Source: a bacterium (GTDB taxonomy: Bacteria; Patescibacteriota; Minisyncoccia; Phycocordibacterales; UBA1006). Taken from it: 64,000 nucleotides of DNA. Position numbers and translations under genes: made by a program. Below the pieces are notes generated by a model. The model was not told the origin of the DNA. It saw only the letters and a list, made by a program, of their open reading frames with translations, and ran no database searches. The stretch covers positions 7,696-71,695 of the forward strand of contig JBAWXN010000003.1 in the NCBI GenBank assembly GCA_037144045.1, written 5' to 3'. Shown here piece by piece: positions 2,875-55,990 of this stretch. Each line of letters starts with the position of its first letter. The stretch's first letter is position 1.

Positions 2875-4551
2875 ATGTCTATTACTCAAACCCTTAATCA
2901 GGCAATAACTATTGCGCTTGCAAACCTTGGAATTTCAGGGGTTGTTTTTACGTTAGAACACCCAACTGAATTGATACATGGGGACTTTGCGTGTAACGCA
3001 GCACTGGTTGCCGCGAAACAAGTAGGTAAAAATCCGCGCACGTTGGCCGATGATATTAAAATTGAACTAGAAAAACTTGAAATTCCTGAAATTGATTCGG
3101 TGGTAATTGCAGGTCCAGGATTTATTAATATCACCTTATCCAAAAAATTTTTCGTTAATTTGAATCACCAGATTGGTGAAACAGGGAATACTTTTGGTAA
3201 AACAACTATTCATGCTGGTAAAAAAGTACTTGTAGAACATTCGTCACCAAATCTTTTTAAACCGTTTCATATTGGACACATGATGAACAATGCGATTGGG
3301 GAATCGTTGGTGCGATTGATGCAATTTTCAGGAGCTGAAGTTGCAACGATGTCATTTCCGTCAGATATTTCACTGGGTGTAGCGAAAGCAATTTTTATCT
3401 TCCTTGAGAAAAAACCAGAAATTACAATCGAGTCTCTAGGTGATGCATATGTAGAGGGAACTAAAAGATATGAAGAGGATGAATCAGTTCATGCTCGTGT
3501 AAAAGAAATCGCAGATAATTTATACGGTAATGTAGATTCACCAGAATTAAGTGTATTCACTACATGCAAACACTTCAATATTAACTACTTTGAAAGTATT
3601 GTAGGAAAGCTTGGTTCACATTTTGATTCTTATATTTACGAAAGTGAAGCGGGGATAGTAGGTAAAGATCTTATTCTAAAAAACACTCCAGGTATTTTCA
3701 CCGAAAGTCAGGGTGCGATTGTGTATATTCCCGATGAATCTAAAAAAGGGCTCAATACCGCGGTGTTTATTAACAGTCAGGGAAATCCAACGTACGAAGC
3801 AAAAGATATTGGACTCCTTGATTTGAAGTTCGAACGAGTACACCCCGACTTGTCGTTATTTGTAACGGACCATGAACAAATTCCACACTTTAAAATCGTG
3901 TTGGATGCCGCAGAAAAAATTAATAAAAACTGGGTAGACAAATCAGTGCACGTACCCCATGGGCGTATGACGTTTAAAGGACAGAAAATGTCATCACGAT
4001 TAGGTGGAGTACCACTTGCCGTTGAAATGATTGAAGATGTGGCAATAGAAGCGAAGGCTCGCGCAAAAGATCCAGAACAGGTTAAACTTGCAGAATCAAT
4101 TGCGATTGCAGCAATCAAATTTGCAATTTTGCGTGCCAAGCCAGGACAGAATATTAATTTTGATCCGGAAACGTCGCTTTCATTTGAAGGTGATTCAGGG
4201 CCTTATTTGCAATATACGCATGCACGTATTTCAAGTGTTATTGAAAAAGCAGGTGAACAACAACTGATGCCTCAGTATTCAGAAGGCGAATCAATAGTAG
4301 ATGTTGAACGCATGGTTGCACAGTTTGAAACCGTGGTCGCTAACGCTATTAGTGAATACGCTCCACAATACGTCGTTACTTACTTACTGGAACTCGCTCG
4401 ATCGTTTAATTCGTTTTATGCAAGCAATAAAATTATTGATAGTGAACACGTAGAGCAATCACAGCATCGCCTTGCGATTGCGCAGAATGTGCAACAAGTA
4501 ATTAAGAATGGGTTACACCTCCTTGCTATTACGGCTCCGAATCGTATGTAA
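2875..4551 (+). CDS. argS: arginyl-tRNA synthetase
   Basis: 558 aa. Class I HIGH motif (PFHIGHMMN) and C-terminal MSSRLGG (KMSKS-like). Overall ArgRS architecture including the DALR anticodon-binding C-terminal region. Extended -10 TGCTAATGT lies 7 nt upstream of the ATG. Confidence 0.9.
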   Translation: MSITQTLNQAITIALANLGISGVVFTLEHPTELIHGDFACNAALVAAKQVGKNPRTLADDIKIELEKLEIPEIDSVVIAGPGFINITLSKKFFVNLNHQIGETGNTFGKTTIHAGKKVLVEHSSPNLFKPFHIGHMMNNAIGESLVRLMQFSGAEVATMSFPSDISLGVAKAIFIFLEKKPEITIESLGDAYVEGTKRYEEDESVHARVKEIADNLYGNVDSPELSVFTTCKHFNINYFESIVGKLGSHFDSYIYESEAGIVGKDLILKNTPGIFTESQGAIVYIPDESKKGLNTAVFINSQGNPTYEAKDIGLLDLKFERVHPDLSLFVTDHEQIPHFKIVLDAAEKINKNWVDKSVHVPHGRMTFKGQKMSSRLGGVPLAVEMIEDVAIEAKARAKDPEQVKLAESIAIAAIKFAILRAKPGQNINFDPETSLSFEGDSGPYLQYTHARISSVIEKAGEQQLMPQYSEGESIVDVERMVAQFETVVANAISEYAPQYVVTYLLELARSFNSFYASNKIIDSEHVEQSQHRLAIAQNVQQVIKNGLHLLAITAPNRM

Positions 4552-6107: not shown

Positions 6108-6881
6108 GTGATCACCAATGATGTTGTAAGTAATGTGTCAGCAGAGTCGACAGAAAATGTGTATCTTTTTAAAGATGACGATGGGACACTTATTAATCCT
6201 AATAAGCAAACAAAATCAGAACCTGAAAAGCTCTGGTTGTTAAATTTTCTTAAATCAGAAACATATAAAAACAAAGCTCACGCAGAAGGATTAACGGATA
6301 AAGATATTCAAGAAAGAATTAAACGCCTAGAAAATACGCCTATTTTTAAAAAGAATGTAGAACATTTTGCAAGCGGGTCAGACGGATATACAACATTATC
6401 TGATTATAATGGTAAACCAATGCCTACTATCAGTATCGCTACAGCAAACCCTGAAAAAGTTCCTGCTACGATTATTCATGAAGGGGAACACGCGGCAACT
6501 CATGGAAATAGTAGATTAAGTAAACGTGCTAAGGCGTTATACGAGGAATCATTTAATAAAGATAATATATATTCGAATAATAAAAAATACGAATCCTACT
6601 TACGTGACTACACGGAGCGAGATGCACGGAAAAGAGAACTTGAGTTTGAAGCCGAAAAACTCGGAATTATAAAAGCTGGGCAAAAAATAACAGTAGATGA
6701 TTATCAAAAAATAATGAAGGCATATGAAGAGGGTAAGTTTGATTATGGTGCAAATCAATTTATTGAAACAACTAAACCGGAATATTTTATTAAAGTAATG
6801 AACGAAATTGCAGATAATCAAGAAATTCAGAATCATAACGACGCGCCGCCCTATAATTTACCGACAGAACAACAAGGATAA
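6108..6881 (+). CDS. hypothetical protein with HExxH (HEGEH) putative metallopeptidase motif
   Basis: 257 aa with GTG start. IIHEGEHAATHG contains HExxH. No signal peptide. Confidence 0.45.
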   Translation: MITNDVVSNVSAESTENVYLFKDDDGTLINPNKQTKSEPEKLWLLNFLKSETYKNKAHAEGLTDKDIQERIKRLENTPIFKKNVEHFASGSDGYTTLSDYNGKPMPTISIATANPEKVPATIIHEGEHAATHGNSRLSKRAKALYEESFNKDNIYSNNKKYESYLRDYTERDARKRELEFEAEKLGIIKAGQKITVDDYQKIMKAYEEGKFDYGANQFIETTKPEYFIKVMNEIADNQEIQNHNDAPPYNLPTEQQG

Positions 6882-6924
6882 GGCTCTTTACATGGAGGGC
6901 TTTTTTCGTTATAGTGATTTTGTG

Positions 6925-7140
6925 AGGCAATGATCCGACTAATCACCGGGGAGCACTTGAAAGAAATTCCTTTAAGGAAAAGTAGATTCAGGCGGGTAAG
7001 CCCGATATAGCGGTAATAAGGGCCGGCAAAAATGCGCAGCATTTTTGCCGGCCAAACCAAGGTGGTACCACGATTTCTAGATACCAAAAGAAACTCGTCC
7101 TTGAAGCATGACTTGTGTCGTGTTTCGCGGACGAGTTTTT
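6925..7140 (+). promoter_or_regulatory. T-box riboswitch leader (Ile-specific) with intrinsic terminator, upstream of ileS
   Basis: T-box sequence AACCAAGGUGGUACCACGA at 7054-7072 (consensus AAnnnGGGUGGnACCGCG). Antiterminator can form as A1 CAAGG/CCUUG, 7-nt bulge UGGUACC (UGGU pairs with tRNA ACCA, discriminator A as in tRNA-Ile), A2 ACGA/UCGU. The competing terminator is ACUCGUCC...GGACGAGU + UUUUU (7092-7140). A strong Stem III hairpin GGCCGGCAAAAAUGC-GCAGC-AUUUUUGCCGGCC lies immediately 5'. Candidate specifier AUC-A at 6942-6945. Confidence 0.65.
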
Positions 7141-7159
7141 ATTTACTTATTTATTTACT

Positions 7160-10100
7160 ATGAACCCAAACCCAAACAAATCACTCAACGCACTCCAAGA
7201 AGAAGCACTGCTTCAATTTTGGCGTGACAACAATATTTTCCAAAAAACACTCGAGAAAAAACTAGAGCCTGGTGCTGATCAAGGTGAATATACGTTCTTC
7301 GAAGGTCCACCAACGGCAAATGGACGTCCAGGTATTCACCATGTCGCTGCGCGGTCGTTCAAAGATATTATTCCGCGGTATAAAACCATGCGTGGTTTTC
7401 GTGTGAATCGAAAAGCGGGTTGGGATACTCATGGGTTGCCGGTAGAGCTTCAAGTAGAAAAACAATTGGGACTCAAGTCTAAAAAAGAAATTGAAAACTA
7501 TGGAGTAGAACTATTCAATCAAAAGTGTCGCGAAAGTGTTTGGGAATATAAAGACGAATGGGAAAAGATTACCGAACGTATGGGATATTGGTTAGATATG
7601 GAACATCCATACGTAACCTATGATAATGGGTACATCGAAGCATTGTGGGCAACCGTAAAGCGCGCAAATGAACGGGGACATCTGTATAAGGATTTTAAAA
7701 TCCTTCCGTGGTGTACACGATGTGGAACGGCGCTTTCGTCACATGAACTCAATCAACCCGGTGCATACAAAGAAGTGAAAGACCTTTCCGTGTTTGCAAA
7801 ATTTCCTATTGTTGGCTTTGAAAAAGCATATTTCCTTGCATGGACTACAACTCCTTGGACGCTTCCAGGAAATGTAGCGCTTGCGGTAGGTGCTGATATC
7901 GACTATGTAGAAGCCAAAGTAGGTGGTGAAATTTTAGTACTCGCCAAAGAACTGACAAAAATACTCCCTGAAGGATTTGAAATTATTGCAGAACATAAAG
8001 GATCTGAAATGGTGGGGATGTATTACGAACCCCTGTTTCCATTTATGAAAAACTTGGTAAAAGATCAAGACGAAAAAATGGAAAAAGCGTATCAGGTATA
8101 TGCAGCTGATTTTGTTACTACTACTGACGGAACAGGAATTGTGCACACGGCAGTGATGTACGGAGCAGATGACTTTGAACTAGGAACTAATATCGGATTG
8201 CCAAAGTTCCACTTAGTGAACGAAGAAGGAAAATTCATTGATGGTTGTGATACTGATACCCTTAAATTATTAGGTCGCTACGTAAAAGAATCAGATGAGA
8301 AAGGCAAACCAACCCTTGCAGTAGATATTATCGATAGTCTCACCGCTCGAGGATTGTTGTTCAAGAAAGAAAATTACGTACACAGCTATCCGCATTGCTG
8401 GCGATGTGATACCCCGCTTATTTATTACGCGCGAGGATCATGGTATTTTGCAATGTCGAAATTACGACAGCAATTATTGGATGCTAACCAAAATATTCAT
8501 TGGGAGCCAGAACATATCAAGGAAGGTCGTTTCGGTGAATGGCTCGATGGTATTAAGGACTGGGCTATTTCACGTGATCGCTATTGGGGAACCCCTATTC
8601 CTGTATGGCAAACAGAAGACGGTCTTGAAAAAGTGGTCATTGGAGGAATTGAAGACTTGAAAACCTATACAAAAAAATCAGGTAATAATTTCTATGCGAT
8701 TCGTCACGGGCAAGCGCATAGTAATACCACGAATACCTGGGATTGCGGACGTGATCCAGAAAATCACCTTACCGACCTAGGGCATGAACAAGTACTTGCT
8801 GCAGCACAAGCGCTTAAAGAAAAAAAGGTGGATGTCATCATCGCATCACCATTTTTAAGAACTCAAGAAACTGCAGCGATAATTGCAAAGGAATTAGGAG
8901 TTAATGAAGCAGATATTGTTACTGATGAACGCCTTGCAGAATGGAACGTAGGAACAGAATTTGACCGCAAGTCACTCGATTATTTCTTCGATGTACGTAA
9001 TAAATCACATGATCGCTATTCGTTTGAATCCCATGAAGGGGAATCATTTGCAAATGTTATTAAACGAGTAGGGGAATGTGTCTATGAAACTGATGCGAAA
9101 TACGCAGGTAAAACAGTGTTATTTGTAGCGCATGGGTCATCGATCCGGGCCCTTGAAATTGTTGCAGAAGGGTTCACGTTTGAAAAAATGTTGAAACGAG
9201 AAGCGAAGCATTTGAATTATAAAAACGCCGAATTCCAAAAGATTGCATTTAGTCGATTGCCCCATAATCAAAACTATGAACTTGATTTCCATAAGCCGTA
9301 TATTGATCAAGTAGAACTTGAATTAAATGGTAAAAAAATCATGCGAACTCCGGAAGTAATGGATGTGTGGTTTGATTCAGGTGCGATGCCGTATGCGCAG
9401 CACCATGTCCTTGGTGAACCGATGGATTTCTCACCGACACCGGCAGATTATATTGCAGAAGGGGTAGATCAAACACGAGGATGGTTTTATACGATGCATG
9501 CGATTGCGAACATGATGAATGACATTCCGACGAATAACTACAAAAATGTTATTTGTATGGGGTTACTCCTTGATGCGAATGGACAAAAAATGTCTAAATC
9601 AAAGGGGAACGTGGTTGCCCCATGGGAGGTATTTGATAAGTATGGTGCAGACGTCGTACGGTTTTGGTTCTATTCAGTAAACCAGCCTGGTGAAGCAAAG
9701 AACTTTGATGAAAAATCATTAGATGAAGTAAACAAGAAAGTATTTAATATTTTGCGAAACGTGGTTTCGTTTTACGAGATATACAAGCCAGAAGAATTTC
9801 CTTGGGTAAATCCATTTGATAGTACTAATGTGCTTGATCAATGGATGCTTGCGAAACTTCAAAACTTATCACAAGTATTGGTTACGAATCTTGATACCTA
9901 CAAAGTTATGGAATCCGCGCGAGCCATCCGTGATTTTGTTACAGAATTATCTACGTGGTATGTGCGTCGCAGTCGTGATCGATTTAAATCACCTGATGAG
10001 GCTGATAAAAACTTTGCATTAGTTACTCTACAGTTTGTACTTGATAACCTTGCGCGATACATGGCACCATTTACACCATTTATTGCAGAAGAAATCTATC

Positions 10101-10630
10101 AAAAAGTTCGAGTACACAAATTCCAAGAATCAGTACATTTGGAAACGTGGCATACTTGGAATGATGAGTCACGATTTAGTGGAACCATAGAACCTATGGA
10201 TCAGGTACGCGAACTCGTAACGCTTGGGCTTGATGCACGTCAAAAGGTTAATATTAAAGTACGACAGCCGCTTGCAACACTAAGTATCTCATCTGAATAT
10301 AGAAACCTAGGAGTGGATTATTTAGATATCCTCAAAGAAGAACTTAATGTTAAAGAGGTAGTGATTGATGATAGTCTAGAAAAAGGTAAGGCTATCCTTG
10401 ATACTGAAATTACTCCAAAGCTTCAAGCAGAAGGGGATATGCGTGAAATCGTTCGCGCTATTCAGGAAATGCGTAAGGAGACTGATTTAGTACCAAGTGA
10501 TAAGGTTATTGTTTCATTAACCAGTGCACAGCCAGAATGGTTTAATGAACTTAAAAATGAATTACAAGGACTCGTTGGTGCACAAGACGTTGTGTGGCAA
10601 GCAGAATCCGATTCAGTAAAAAAGGTGTAA
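7160..10630 (+). CDS. ileS: isoleucyl-tRNA synthetase (type 2) carrying an inserted histidine-phosphatase (PGM-family) domain
   Basis: Class I signatures (NGRPGIHHV HIGH region, KMSKS = KMSKSKG) and a CP1 editing region. The IleRS-specific WCWRCDTP ... ISRDRYWGTPIPVW ... HKPYIDQVEL...TPEVMDVWFDSGAMP resembles Thermus-type IleRS. Between KKSG and EFQKIAF lies ~190 aa with RHG (AIRHGQAHSN) and second-His (VAHGSSIRAL) motifs of the histidine phosphatase superfamily. The ORF-track start at 7115 lies inside the T-box terminator, so the start is taken at ATG 7160 (MNPNPNK). Confidence 0.9.
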   Translation: MNPNPNKSLNALQEEALLQFWRDNNIFQKTLEKKLEPGADQGEYTFFEGPPTANGRPGIHHVAARSFKDIIPRYKTMRGFRVNRKAGWDTHGLPVELQVEKQLGLKSKKEIENYGVELFNQKCRESVWEYKDEWEKITERMGYWLDMEHPYVTYDNGYIEALWATVKRANERGHLYKDFKILPWCTRCGTALSSHELNQPGAYKEVKDLSVFAKFPIVGFEKAYFLAWTTTPWTLPGNVALAVGADIDYVEAKVGGEILVLAKELTKILPEGFEIIAEHKGSEMVGMYYEPLFPFMKNLVKDQDEKMEKAYQVYAADFVTTTDGTGIVHTAVMYGADDFELGTNIGLPKFHLVNEEGKFIDGCDTDTLKLLGRYVKESDEKGKPTLAVDIIDSLTARGLLFKKENYVHSYPHCWRCDTPLIYYARGSWYFAMSKLRQQLLDANQNIHWEPEHIKEGRFGEWLDGIKDWAISRDRYWGTPIPVWQTEDGLEKVVIGGIEDLKTYTKKSGNNFYAIRHGQAHSNTTNTWDCGRDPENHLTDLGHEQVLAAAQALKEKKVDVIIASPFLRTQETAAIIAKELGVNEADIVTDERLAEWNVGTEFDRKSLDYFFDVRNKSHDRYSFESHEGESFANVIKRVGECVYETDAKYAGKTVLFVAHGSSIRALEIVAEGFTFEKMLKREAKHLNYKNAEFQKIAFSRLPHNQNYELDFHKPYIDQVELELNGKKIMRTPEVMDVWFDSGAMPYAQHHVLGEPMDFSPTPADYIAEGVDQTRGWFYTMHAIANMMNDIPTNNYKNVICMGLLLDANGQKMSKSKGNVVAPWEVFDKYGADVVRFWFYSVNQPGEAKNFDEKSLDEVNKKVFNILRNVVSFYEIYKPEEFPWVNPFDSTNVLDQWMLAKLQNLSQVLVTNLDTYKVMESARAIRDFVTELSTWYVRRSRDRFKSPDEADKNFALVTLQFVLDNLARYMAPFTPFIAEEIYQKVRVHKFQESVHLETWHTWNDESRFSGTIEPMDQVRELVTLGLDARQKVNIKVRQPLATLSISSEYRNLGVDYLDILKEELNVKEVVIDDSLEKGKAILDTEITPKLQAEGDMREIVRAIQEMRKETDLVPSDKVIVSLTSAQPEWFNELKNELQGLVGAQDVVWQAESDSVKKV

Positions 10631-51684: not shown

Positions 51685-52589
51685 CCCCTCGTCTCACAAA
51701 TTTTCTACCTTCTTGGTCTGATCAAATGTGGGAGACAGATCATTGTCAACTTCATGCGTTGCCCGAAGCATTTATTGAGGTATTTTTTCTCTATGAAAAT
51801 TTAGAAAAAATATTTACGTTATCCCGCTTCGGAGCACGATTGAGAAATAATACAGGCGAATTTTGCACAAGTGCAGAATTCAAGTATTTTTTACCAAGCA
51901 AATAAAAGAACAGTTCTAAAAAAAATTTAGAACAACCCGCCTCATCGGCGGGTGAAAAAGTCTCCGCCGGAAAGGCGGAGCAAAATAAAAAGTCCTTTCT
52001 ATAATGGTTATAGAAAGGCGAACACACAAAGATGTGTTTACTTGTGATTTTTAGATTTCCTAATAGGAGTCTAAGGGCGTAGTAGTGGATGCCTTGGTTC
52101 ATGGAAGCGATGAAGGACGCGACAGCCTGCGATAAGGTTCGGGGAGCTGGCAATAAGCTTTGATCCGGACATTTCCGAATGAGGAAACTCATTGGGGGTT
52201 ATACCCCAATATCTGACAGCTGTCAGATGCTAACCTAGGGAAGTGAAACATCTCAGTACCTAGAGGAATAGAAAACAATAGTTATTTCCTGAGTAGCGGC
52301 GAGCGAAACGGAAGGAGCCCAAACCAAGTTGATCGCGTAGTGTTTGATAGATTTATTTATCGAAACCTACGCGATACATTTGGGGTTATAAGACGAGAAC
52401 GTCATTTAGTTGAGAAGAGTTACAAATTCATGTGTTAGATTAAGTATCTGGGAAGATACGGCATAGAGGGTGATACCCCCTTGATCGAAAACGCTATGAA
52501 CTCTTTTGTTCACGCTCTTGAGTACTTCGAGACACGAATAGCTCGGAGGAATTTGCCGGAACTAACCGGTAAGGCTAAATATTCCATGA

Positions 52590-52635
<46 letters not shown>

Positions 52636-53213
52636 GGAGAGGGGAGTGAAATAGATCTGAAACCCTACGCCTACAAGGAGTCGGAGCGGCAATTTATTGT
52701 CCGTCACGGCGTGCCTATTGAAGAATGAGCCAACGAGTTATAGCATGCGGCAGGCTAAGCGCTTTAAATGCGTGGAGCCACAGCGAAAGCGAGTCTGAAT
52801 AGGGCGAAATTTATGTCGTATGCTATAGACCCGAAGCCAGGTGATCTACCCATGGACAGGTTGAAGTTCCGCGAAAGCGGAATGGAGGACCGAACCAATA
52901 AGCCGTGCAATACTTTTGGATGATCTGTGGGTTGGAGTGAAAAGCTAATCGAACCTGGTAATAGCTGGTTCTCTCCGAAACAGCTTTTGGGCTGGCGTCG
53001 AGCGTTCCCTTTGGGGGTAGAGCACTGGATGGTCTTGACAGGGAGCAATCTCGCAAGACCTACCAAACTCCGAATACCAAAGGCCACAGCTCGGCAGTTA
53101 GACAGTGGGGGCGAAGCTCCACGAGTCAAAACGGAAACAGCCGTAGATCTCAAATTAAGGTCCCTAAATTCATGTTAAGTACACTTAAGGAGGTTAGATT
53201 TCTTCGACAATGA

Positions 53214-53245
<32 letters not shown>

Positions 53246-54038
53246 GAAAGCGTAACAGCTCACTCATCAAGAGATCTAGCGCCGCAAATAATCGGGGTTA
53301 AACATGATACCGAAGTTGAGGATGCATTATTCCCTCGGGAGTAATGCGTGGTAGGAGAGTATTCGCATCTGCGATGAAGCCGAAGGCGTGAGCCACGGTG
53401 GAGCGTTGCGAAGCAAGAATGTTGGCACAAGTAACCACAAGACACGTGAAATCCGTGTCCGCCGAAAAGTCAAGGTTTCCTATTCAATGTCAATCAGAGT
53501 AGGGTTAGTCGGGCCTAAGGTAATGGCGATAGCCGGAACCGATGGACACATGGTTAATATTCCATGACTTCTCATAGGGCGATGGAGAGACGGAGAAAAC
53601 AAGCATATGCGCATTATTGGATTTGCGTTCGTGCATCGAGGTTCGTAGCTTAGGAAAATCCGGGCTACATAAGAACCGTGGTGAGCGAAAATTTTTGGCT
53701 TCGGCCTGAGAAATATATGTGAAGAGTCTTCCGAGAAAATCTTCTAGCTTAACCTATGAGAAACCGTACCGCAAACCGACACAGGTGACTAGCTCGAGTA
53801 GAGTAAGGCGAACGAGTGAGGGATCCTCAAGGAACTCGGCAAAAAAGCGGCCGTAACTTCGGAATAAGGCCTGCCTCTTGCAAAAGAGGCCGCAGCGAAA
53901 GTCTCCCTGGCGACTGTTTATCAAAAACACAGCTCCCTGCTAAATCGTAAGATGATGTATAGGGGGTGACACCTGACCAATGCCAGAAGGTTAAATAATG
54001 GCGGTGCGATTATATCAAGCTGACTGTTATAAGCCCTG

Positions 54039-54081
<43 letters not shown>

Positions 54082-54741
54082 ACCTTGTCGGGTAAGTTCC
54101 GACGCGCACGAATGGTGTAACGACTGGGGAACTGTCTCGAGGATTTGCTCGGTGAAAATACAATACCGGTGAAGATGCCGGTTACCTGCAGTTAGACGAA
54201 AAGACCCCGGAAGCTTTACTATAGCTTTACATTGGGCATATTTTTTTATTGCGTAGCATAGGTGGGAGAGGTTATGTACACGATCTTGGTTGTGTAATAC
54301 TCAACAGTGAAATACCACTCTGTAACGAGATATGTCCTAACTTGGTCGAAAAAACGATCAAAGACAGTGTATGGTGGGTAGTTTGTTTGGGGCGAATCCC
54401 TCCTAAAGAGTAACGGAGGGGCCTACAAAGGTTATCTAGGCGTGAATGGAAACCATGCCGATAGTGTAATGGCACAAGATAGCTTGACTGCAAGTCGTAC
54501 ATGACGAGCAGGTGCGAAAGCAGAGCATAGTGAACCGACTTTAGCCTTTAGACGGCGAAGAAGATCAACGGATAAAAGCTACTCCGGGGATAACAGGCTA
54601 GTTTCGCCCGAGCGTCCACAGCGACGGCGAAGTTCGGCACCTCGATGTCGGCTCATCATATCCTGGGGCTGGAGAAGGTCCCAAGGGTTTGGCTGTTCGC
54701 CAATTAAAATGATACGCGAGCTGGGTTCAGACCGTTAAGTG

Positions 54742-55463
54742 TTTTTCATGATAACTCCTGTTGTCGCGAAGAGCATTTTACAGTCTGAATCCACGAGGAC
54801 ACAACTGTTAAAACCAAAAGGTACACGCCTTTTCAAAACGTGATGTTATAAGTTTTTTCGTTTAATAAAAAGTCTTTAAACTGGTGTATAGAAATATGCC
54901 AAGAATAAAGCAAAAAGATAGAAATTAAATCTATTATTATTTGTGAATTTCATAGAGGAAAATTTCCTCATGTTCTTTAAGACCTCACCGAGGCATTGCG
55001 AGAGTAATCTCAGGGTGACCGAGTATATATGTACGCAAATAACACTTCGGTGTTACTAGGTCAAAATGTCGGGTCTCAGGTCTGCGTACGCACACCTGAA
55101 AACTTAAATTGGTCGTGTGGCCGAGTGGCTAGGCACAGGTCTGCAAAACCTGGTACGAAGGTTCGAATCCTTCTGTGACCTCGAGTAGTAAGCATTATTT
55201 AAATGCTTACCTCTTCTATGAAATTCATAAATATACAATAGGTTTAAAAGTAGTATCAACCAATAATTGCGGCGGTCTCATATGGTGACATATGAAGACA
55301 TGTTCAACTTATATCGGTGAAATCCCACTCGTAACAAACGAAGGACGACCCCGAGGGAATTCCAAGAGTAATCAAGGATGCCCGTAGAGACTAAATGTTG
55401 AAAATCTCATTGAGATTAAGTTATAGTCCATTGCTTACAGTAATGTAAGAAAACAAGCGCAAG
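54742..55463 (+). mobile_element. group I intron (ORF-less) in 23S rRNA at the position homologous to E. coli ~2593, carrying a nested tRNA-like gene
   Basis: rRNA colinearity breaks after ...GCTGGGTTCAGACCGTTAAGTG and resumes at AGACAGGTTGGTCTCCTATCTACTGCAGGCG. Core elements in the 3' third are Q-like AATTGCGGCGG (55265), R-like GTAGAGACTAAATG (55384) and S-like AAGTTATAGTCC (55418), giving P7 GACTA/TAGTC. No ORF longer than 60 aa inside. Boundaries are +/- 5 nt. Confidence 0.7.
55111..55181 (+). tRNA. tRNA-Cys (anticodon GCA) embedded in the 23S group I intron, no encoded CCA
   Basis: Hand-folded cloverleaf: 7-bp acceptor stem GGTCGTG/TGTGACC (3 G-U), U8, A14, G18G19, 3-bp D stem, anticodon stem CAGGT/ACCTG with loop CT-GCA-AA, 4-nt variable loop, T arm GAAGG-TTCGAAT-CCTTC. 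Discriminator U73 is the tRNA-Cys identity element. Confidence 0.7.
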
Positions 55464-55880: not shown

Positions 55881-55990
55881 GTTCTGGTGATTTGGTACGG
55901 TGGTCACACCTCTTCCCATTTCGAACAGAGTCGTTAAGCACCAGTACACCAATGGTACTCCTTCGGGGGAAGAGTAGGTGTCGCCAGAAC
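55881..55990 (+). rRNA. rrf: 5S ribosomal RNA
   Basis: GTTCTGGTGATTTGGTACGGTGGTCACACCTCTTCCCATTTCGAACAGAGTCGTTAAGC...AGTAGGTGTCGCCAGAAC. Helix I closes GTTCTGG/CCAGAAC and is extended by precursor stem AAGTTCTCAG.../...CGAGAACTT. Confidence 0.85.

Follow-up and report, generated by a model that had tools for sequence, protein, structure and literature searches.

The 64-kb window analyzed here, by which we mean the whole stretch of patescibacterial DNA presented above, carries on its forward strand ileS, a gene for a type-2 isoleucyl-tRNA synthetase (IleRS) of 1156 amino acids (7160–10630), and the leader in front of it (6927–7140) is, judging from its sequence, very probably a T-box riboswitch that attenuates ileS transcription in response to uncharged tRNA-Ile. 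It is a genuine T-box in which an ultrashort decoding module is joined to an intrinsic terminator, in a phylum new for T-boxes and under the cut-off by which Rfam recognizes them. An earlier, sequence-only reading of the window had proposed a T-box with a UGGU bulge and an intrinsic terminator upstream of ileS, and this proposal was borne out by the Pfam assignment of the gene as IleRS, by the E-value of the match to the Rfam T-box model RF00230, and by the invariance of the UGGU in 28 of 28 leaders. The sequence features named in that reading all lie at the positions given there.

The identity of the downstream open reading frame (ORF) was established by Pfam, which found tRNA-synt_1 and Anticodon_1 domains, by comparison with the PDB, in which the closest solved structures are the IleRS entries 8c8w and 1ile (E about 1e-222), and by alignment with homologous IleRS proteins, whose N termini line up from residue 1. 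Those homologues that have names come from Patescibacteria (Minisyncoccia, Nomurabacteria and Pacebacteria). Taking one genome per species and using the N-terminal half of IleRS as the query, we assembled 80 patescibacterial loci and scanned them for the leader motif GGTGGNACC[AG]CG. The motif occurs once in the window and in 27 of the 80 loci, only on the + strand and only upstream of ileS, so that the search of related genomes proposed in the sequence-only reading did recover like leaders. A profile built from the aligned leaders recovered the identical 28 (the 27 and that of the window) and no others, and with this profile no divergent T-box was found in the 52 motif-negative loci. Scanning metagenomes with a family-specific pattern added 17 full-length leaders, with IleRS downstream.

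Alternative helices in the ileS leader

The T-box core, AAGGUGGUACCACG, lies at 7059–7072, and comparison of GGUGGUACCACG with the consensus GGUGGNACCGCG shows the single mismatch that had been noted from the sequence, A7070 in place of G; A7070 pairs with U7098 in helix A2. The antiterminator (7058–7103), which is supported by folding of the isolated stretch and by pair counts in 25 leaders, consists of helix A1 (C7058–G7062 with C7099–G7103), a seven-nucleotide bulge, UGGUACC (7063–7069), and helix A2 (A7070–A7073 with U7095–U7098), the last being extended to 7078/7089 with C7094 bulged. When 7056–7106 was folded alone, it adopted exactly this structure, the one claimed at the outset, at −9.4 kcal/mol. 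The UGGU of the bulge is the predicted partner of the ACCA 3′ end of the tRNA. All 28 leaders, although retrieved with a motif that allowed any base at bulge position 4, have U there, and this invariant U fits A73 of tRNA-Ile(GAU) as generally known.

The 3′ strand of the antiterminator is reused, again as claimed, as the 5′ strand of an intrinsic terminator (7089–7140; shared strand, 7089–7103), for which folding, pair counts and U-tracts all provide evidence. Its lower stem has 12 base pairs (7089–7100/7129–7140), its inner helix spans 7102–7112/7117–7127, and its U-tract occupies 7136–7140. Its energy of −34.0 kcal/mol makes it much more stable than the antiterminator, and the family medians are −27.5 kcal/mol for the terminator hairpin and −10.0 kcal/mol for the antiterminator. 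The leader combines the general hallmarks of a T-box, a conserved T-box sequence and an antiterminator with a seven-nucleotide UGGN bulge, with that of a transcriptional one, a terminator that has a U-tract and is mutually exclusive with the antiterminator. The fold of the whole leader reached −90.7 kcal/mol, compared with −60.6 ± 4.2 for shuffled sequences (z = −7.1).

Upstream of these helices lies an ultrashort Stem I (6927–6954, 28 nucleotides in total; Rfam alignment and pair counts). Its base forms a K-turn in which G6927–C6928 pair with G6953–C6954, AAU (6929–6931) is bulged, and G6932·A6952 and A6933·G6951 are the tandem pairs. Above the K-turn a 4-base-pair helix (6934–6937/6947–6950) is capped by a nine-nucleotide apical Specifier loop (6938–6946), with the terminal loop sequence ACUAAUCAC. 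What the sequence-only reading had called a Stem I-like region is thus a Stem I, but a truncated one, consisting of the K-turn, the short helix and the apical loop, with no AG bay, distal loop or double T-loop platform. The apical loop presents the isoleucine codon AUC (6942–6944) followed by the purine A6945. This specifier, AUC-A, was one of two offered by the sequence-only reading, and in each of the 45 leaders AUC precedes a purine (28 genomic ones including the window, and 17 from metagenomes, of which 14 have A and 3 have G after the codon). ATCA is invariant in the MAFFT alignment and in all 28 genomic leaders, and the loop bases that flank it vary. With its conserved purine, the specifier corresponds to isoleucine, the substrate of the synthetase encoded downstream. 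The alternative that had been offered, an AUU at 6966–6968, was rejected, as it sits unconserved in the variable distal part of Stem II while AUCA is invariant. Lacking the platform and carrying its specifier in the apical loop, the leader has the features of the ultrashort T-boxes; its loop of nine nucleotides is larger than the 5–6 described for them, and most relatives have 5–7. In L008, L038 and L041 an additional hairpin separates the Stem I helix from the 3′ strand of the K-turn.

Stem II (6956–6992; invariant columns, pair counts and Rfam alignment) has a basal helix of 6 base pairs (6956–6961/6987–6992), an internal loop in which AGAA (6962–6965) lies opposite GUAGA (6982–6986), and a variable distal hairpin (6967–6979). 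The internal loop is of the S-turn type, its GAA and the U-A-·-A of GUAGA being invariant columns, and the Rfam alignment places AAGUA on Stem II of the model. At the level of motifs, the K-turn (GC/AAU/GA ... GA/GC) and the S-turn (AGAA opposite GUAGA) both appear to be present. Next come the Stem IIA hairpin CGGGUAAGCCCG (6993–7004) and a linker, which together span 6993–7019; the linker has a conserved AGC (7009–7011), and AAG at 7018–7020 corresponds to the RAG purines that precede Stem III. Of the 28 leaders, 18 have the IIA hairpin, and it covaries, four of them (L009, L011, L013 and L015) having CAGG/CCUG instead of CGGG/CCCG. A candidate IIB pseudoknot would pair the loop (6999–7001) with 7010–7012, and two of its three pairs are invariant G–C.

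Stem III, which had been described as a strong hairpin preceding the T-box, is a perfect 15-base-pair hairpin in the minimum-free-energy structure (7021–7053; 7021–7035/7039–7053, loop GCA). Stem III is usually conserved only as a helix and not in sequence. Here it bears a palindromic module, AAAAATGC-GCA-GCATTTTT, and the palindrome AAAWTGC-N2-4-GCAWTTT occurs nine times in ~623 kb, all nine inside ileS T-box leaders. In the form (GG)GAAAATTGC-NNN-GCAATTTTC(CC) it is found in the window (7020–7053) and in L004, L005, L006, L009, L011, L013, L014 and L015, where it makes up Stem III in seven leaders, including that of the window; in L011 and L014 it sits at the apex of Stem II. It could represent a shuffled module, a binding site for a protein or a palindromic operator in the DNA.

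A transcript starting at about 6920 would first form the short Stem I, whose apical loop presents AUC and the purine, and then Stem II with its S-turn, the IIA hairpin, the long Stem III and the T-box sequence, which can enter either the weak antiterminator with its UGGUACC bulge or the much stronger terminator with its U-tract. The sequences show these alternatives and their conservation; for the tRNA ligand and what follows from it we infer, by analogy with T-boxes of established mechanism, that the leader would work as follows. The GAU anticodon of tRNA-Ile would pair with AUC in the groove between Stem I and Stem II, and the S-turn of Stem II would reinforce this contact, as it does in the Class III co-crystal structures (PMC10482949, PMC10651847). 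If the tRNA were uncharged, its free ACCA end would pair with UGGU and stack on Stem III and the antiterminator, which would hold 7089–7103 in the antiterminator and let RNA polymerase read into ileS. Ile-tRNA-Ile would be unable to contact UGGU, the terminator would form, and transcription would stop at 7136–7140. Falling charging of tRNA-Ile would in this way cause ileS to be transcribed.

Covariation, distribution and competing explanations

Because the alignment must not be fitted to the structure, we cut blocks at fixed offsets from conserved sequence anchors, and MAFFT introduced no gaps into them (25 leaders, 95 columns). This procedure is less biased toward the proposed structure than a covariance model. 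With Stem I, Stem II and the antiterminator imposed, 88.0% of the cells were paired, compared with 23–52% in slid registers; 13 pairs had changed on both sides, and the covariation score was 0.429, a value reached by none of 500 shuffles (mean 0.180). Replacing the antiterminator with the terminator gave 90.3% paired cells (26–53% in slid registers), 14 pairs changed on both sides, and a score of 0.472, again reached by 0 of 500 shuffles (mean 0.195).

Among the 25 leaders, the core pairs of Stem I are 96–100% paired, as GC, CG, AU or GU, and five of five change on both sides. In the basal helix of Stem II, all 25 leaders have the four core pairs formed (28, 28, 28 and 26 in the 28-leader count, or 93–100%), with compensatory changes in five of the six pairs of that helix. 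Helix A1 is 97.6% paired and helix A2 87.2%, with compensatory changes present, and the basal 10 base pairs of the terminator are 97.2% paired, with four compensatory pairs. The shared strand is the most telling. In L031, L034 and L036, U7098 has become C together with changes of both of its partners, A7070 to G in the antiterminator and A7131 to G in the terminator. At U7095 a change to C is seen in 5 leaders of the 25-leader alignment (6 in the count of 28), its terminator partner changing each time, and its antiterminator partner is paired in all but two leaders. This three-way covariation implies that selection maintains both of the mutually exclusive helices. Compensatory changes thus occur in Stem I, Stem II, the antiterminator and the terminator, which is the support whose absence, according to the sequence-only reading, should have counted against a T-box. 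The order of elements is also constant, all 28 leaders having a short Stem I, AUCA directly before its 3′ strand, GUAGA, the T-box, and a G+C-rich hairpin followed by 4–7 U.

Several observations nevertheless weigh against a tRNA-Ile-responsive transcriptional T-box. The first concerns Rfam. A permissive RF00230 scan covering 6850–7200, the check that the sequence-only reading had suggested, gave a match at 6921–7105 that is significant (E 9.9e-10 for the stretch searched) and full length (model positions 1–219), but its score of 48.1 bits is only about half of the gathering score of 93 bits. When the whole window was scanned at Rfam gathering scores, we recovered the 23S rRNA, the 5S rRNA and one tRNA, and no T-box. 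The score is low because distal Stem I is deleted, 76 model positions being replaced by 7 nucleotides in the alignment, and two relatives with the same deletion, L119 and L179, score 64–67 bits. Scores under the gathering cut-off make the leader family invisible to any annotation that relies on it. The lack of a match at the gathering score is what could be said for a chance resemblance, in which an ordinary structured intergenic region with a terminator happens to contain a T-box-like 12-mer. Against this stand the full-length match to the model, the confinement of the motif to the region upstream of ileS in 27 other genomes, and covariation above every shuffle and every slid register; we give chance resemblance almost no probability and consider it already refuted by the comparative data.

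Second, the tRNA itself is missing from the sequences at hand. The gene for tRNA-Ile is absent from the window and from every related contig examined; tRNA scans of the related loci found zero tRNAs in the 80 genome loci and zero tRNA-Ile in 120 metagenome loci. The identity of the partner is taken from general knowledge of bacterial tRNA-Ile, which has a GAU anticodon and discriminator A73. Third, some of the T-box parts are incomplete. The third pair of the candidate IIB pseudoknot could form as Watson–Crick or G–U in no more than 12 of the 18 leaders counted by hand, the window having an A·G mismatch there, and the IIA hairpin is missing from 9 of 28 leaders (L006, L008, L021, L023, L028, L032, L037, L038 and L041), in which Stem II leads straight into UAAAUGAG or UAAAUAAG. 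Fourth, the leader is patchily distributed. In all 27 positives the IleRS shares at least 57% identity with that of the window, as it does in 43 loci altogether, yet the leader is missing in 13 of the 40 assessable closest relatives (L001, L010 and L017 having too little upstream sequence to judge) and in 37 of 37 more distant ones, so that this mode of control is dispensable.

The patchy distribution, with the leader absent from about a third of close relatives and from all distant ones, would also be expected if the leader were the decaying relic of a T-box, now a non-regulating 5′ untranslated region with a leaky terminator. The loss of distal Stem I would fit as well, as would the loss of IIA/B or of the K-turn in some relatives (L012, for one, has no K-turn consensus). 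A relic, however, would not be expected to retain compensatory changes that preserve both alternative helices and Stems I and II over 25–28 species, or invariant AUC-purine, UGGU and S-turn bases, and a constitutive terminator of −34 kcal/mol before an essential gene would be harmful without antitermination. We therefore consider a relic very unlikely.

The last point against transcriptional control by tRNA-Ile is that the leader lacks the elbow platform (IDTM) that reviews require for transcriptional T-boxes; it does not have the long Stem I with a distal double T-loop platform for the tRNA elbow that defines Class I. The same T-box, responding to the same tRNA, might instead act on translation or on mRNA stability, with the hairpin serving as a sequestrator. 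Precedent favors this, in that ultrashort and Class III/IV ileS T-boxes have been described as translational (PMC10482949; bioRxiv 10.1101/2023.02.28.530422), and insertions atop helix A2, such as the one present here, have been called typical of translational T-boxes (PMC7583486). The sequences themselves argue otherwise. The gap from the U-tract to the ileS ATG (7160) is 19 nucleotides, and not the 20 given originally, and there is no purine-rich Shine–Dalgarno sequence in 7141–7159 or inside the terminator hairpin. In 11 relatives the hairpin lies 226–1579 nucleotides upstream of ileS and so cannot mask the start site. In all 28 leaders the G+C-rich stem is followed directly by 4–7 U, the signature of an intrinsic terminator. 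On these grounds (spacing, absence of a Shine–Dalgarno sequence, U-tracts and distant hairpins) we rejected a translational sequestrator as the main mode; translational or stability control is unlikely, if a little less so than a relic, and transcription attenuation by tRNA-Ile remains the reading that we prefer.

The ileS locus and related observations

The gene upstream of the leader (ORF at 6108–6881 in the ORF list) is closed by its own terminator-like hairpin and U-run (6880–6907, + strand); the terminator scan gave a stem at 6880–6903 with 10 pairs, followed by TTTTCG. This hairpin and U-run set the ileS leader apart as a separate transcription unit. A promoter-like site, TTTACA-17 nt-TATAGT (6887–6915, + strand), agrees at 10 of 12 positions, and the predicted transcript start lies a few bases 5′ of Stem I, near 6920. 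A −10-like hexamer, TAnnnT, lies 16–17 nucleotides before the base of Stem I in 24 of the 28 homologous leaders.

For argS (2875–4551), which shares the strand of ileS and lies two genes ahead of it, no T-box or other leader was detected by Rfam at the gathering score, motif scan or nhmmer profile. By the same three approaches no second T-box was found in the window: there was no Rfam hit at the gathering score, the motif occurs a single time, and nhmmer gave no further hit. The only tRNA gene found in the window by ARAGORN and Rfam is that for tRNA-Cys(GCA) (55111–55181), which lies between the 23S (52061–54782) and 5S (55883–55989) rRNA genes; no 16S gene was found across the 52 kb upstream of the 23S gene.

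Where the terminator is 226–403 nucleotides upstream of ileS (L002, L004, L009, L011, L012, L032, L036 and L041), the opposite strand of the gap carries a small, mostly hydrophobic ORF of 56–118 amino acids, found in about 10 relatives, in which a W.G.G motif recurs. It was also seen inside the L014 locus and is absent from the window. A read-through ileS transcript would be antisense to this ORF. L014 also has a 275-amino-acid ORF (1695–2522) between the T-box and ileS, whose first eight residues, MNPNPKNF, duplicate the N terminus of ileS; the arrangement suggests that something inserted into the 5′ end of ileS and displaced the gene from its leader by 1.6 kb.

The IleRS protein has an unusual feature of its own. 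Residues 512–686 (8693–9217 in the window) match Pfam His_Phos_1, of the histidine phosphatase superfamily (E 2e-32), inside the catalytic core. The CP1 editing domain (residues ~202–412) is intact and lies N-terminal to it, indicating that His_Phos_1 is an extra insertion. It is present in nearly all of the 120 best IleRS homologues, all of them of the Patescibacteria type, and to our knowledge no function has been described for a fusion of IleRS with a histidine phosphatase.

A second short-stem leader, AGCGUUUAGUUUGG-UUUCCCG-CCAAAC..., was observed on metagenome contigs with low GC contents of 33–46% (L097, L121, L123, L133 and L183). Its apical loop carries CCC and then G, a specifier of the proline type, and it further has a T-box core and a terminator ending in a U-tract; the four loci that were scanned (L097, L121, L123 and L183) scored 34–42 bits with RF00230. 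Downstream of this leader lie proline-synthesis genes, and the proteins encoded there are a ProB-like amino-acid kinase, a P5C reductase, a class-III aminotransferase, an ArgZ-like C-terminal-domain protein and a tRNA-binding-domain protein. Short-stem, terminator-coupled T-boxes may thus not be limited to ileS.

Relation to known T-box classes

Class III T-boxes, exemplified by ileS of Nocardia farcinica, have a short Stem I without a platform, a specifier in the apical loop and a required Stem II; in Class IV T-boxes Stem I is intermediate and the specifier sits in a side bulge. Translation initiation is what both classes 'mostly' regulate (PMC10482949). The ultrashort class has been called translational T-box RNAs, all regulating ileS (bioRxiv 10.1101/2023.02.28.530422, a preprint co-authored by Henkin). 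Transcriptional T-boxes, by comparison, are said in a 2020 review to need in general a long Stem I with the platform for fast capture of the tRNA, and the 'essentiality' of the platform in them is contrasted with its dispensability in translational ones (PMC7583486).

The closest known relatives of the leader are the actinobacterial ultrashort, or Class III, ileS T-boxes of Mycobacterium tuberculosis, M. smegmatis and N. farcinica, as far as these are described in PMC10482949 (for Sherwood 2015) and bioRxiv 10.1101/2023.02.28.530422. Common to both are the ileS target, a short Stem I free of the platform, a basal K-turn and AUC plus purine in the apical loop, and further a Stem II with S-turn, the IIA hairpin, the linker, Stem III, the T-box bulge and a helix atop A2. 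The expression platform sets them apart: the window has a G+C-rich hairpin with a U-tract, whereas the actinobacterial RNAs have a Shine–Dalgarno sequestrator, so that the translational, anti-Shine–Dalgarno platform of Class III is lacking here. The apical loop also differs (nine nucleotides in the window and mostly 5–7 in its relatives, versus 5–6), as does the host phylum, here Patescibacteria. A third of the family, moreover, is without IIA/B, which the actinobacterial RNAs are reported to require (PMC10651847); the K-turn, too, has been reported as essential in actinobacterial Class III T-boxes.

With the Class I T-boxes of Firmicutes (for example tyrS of Bacillus subtilis; RF00230), the leader shares the mutually exclusive antiterminator and terminator on one shared strand, the seven-nucleotide UGGN bulge, Stem II with its S-turn, IIA with a candidate IIB pairing, Stem III and a specifier that matches the regulated synthetase. 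Unlike them it is missing the distal two-thirds of Stem I (AG bay and distal loop, the elbow platform), has its specifier in the terminal loop rather than in an internal loop, and scores half of the gathering cut-off. Six relatives (L006, L008, L028, L041, L107 and L110) resemble Class IV, of the Actinomyces odontolyticus type (PMC10482949), in that their Stem I is intermediate, lacks the platform, and carries a short helix over a specifier placed in a side bulge. The window differs from Class IV in its terminal-loop form, and these Class IV-like relatives carry terminators and not sequestrators.

In the literature that we searched on T-boxes and riboswitches in Patescibacteria, the candidate phyla radiation (CPR), Saccharibacteria and Parcubacteria, we found no report of a native T-box, in agreement with the sequence-only reading, whose author was aware of none in CPR-like genomes. 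A 2024 perspective treats riboswitches only as a prospective tool for Patescibacteria, and the short-stem model of TBDB is applied to Actinobacteria only. A few terminator-bearing short-stem leaders from Actinobacteria may already be on record in primary papers outside our search.

T-boxes are a textbook case of RNA sensing RNA, and the field divides them into 'kinetic' transcriptional ones, with a long Stem I and an elbow platform, and 'thermodynamic' translational ones, with a short Stem I. Our results cut across this division. On balance, we are inclined to think that Patescibacteria harbor a widespread family of transcription-terminating T-boxes without tRNA elbow contact, some of them also without the IIA/B pseudoknot or the K-turn. 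If so, a co-transcriptional, kinetic decision would be possible with the anticodon groove and the contact to the 3′ end alone, which would contradict the view of the Stem I platform as essential for transcriptional T-boxes and that of an ultrashort Stem I as implying translational control and ileS only; the proline-type metagenome leaders would then extend the design beyond ileS. The long, sequence-conserved palindrome of Stem III may compensate for the missing elbow contact or may be a second input. The class of mechanism itself is well understood, and it is the coupling of a short decoding module to a terminator in a conserved family that contradicts the stated generalization. The leaders also provide natural test RNAs for the question of whether elbow contact is needed for co-transcriptional control. 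A dedicated model would recover the family that standard annotation misses, and probably other short-stem T-boxes too. Gene regulation in Patescibacteria has been called virtually unknown (PMC11665869), and in the literature that we searched we found no native regulator of the riboswitch type described concretely for these bacteria before the ileS leader.

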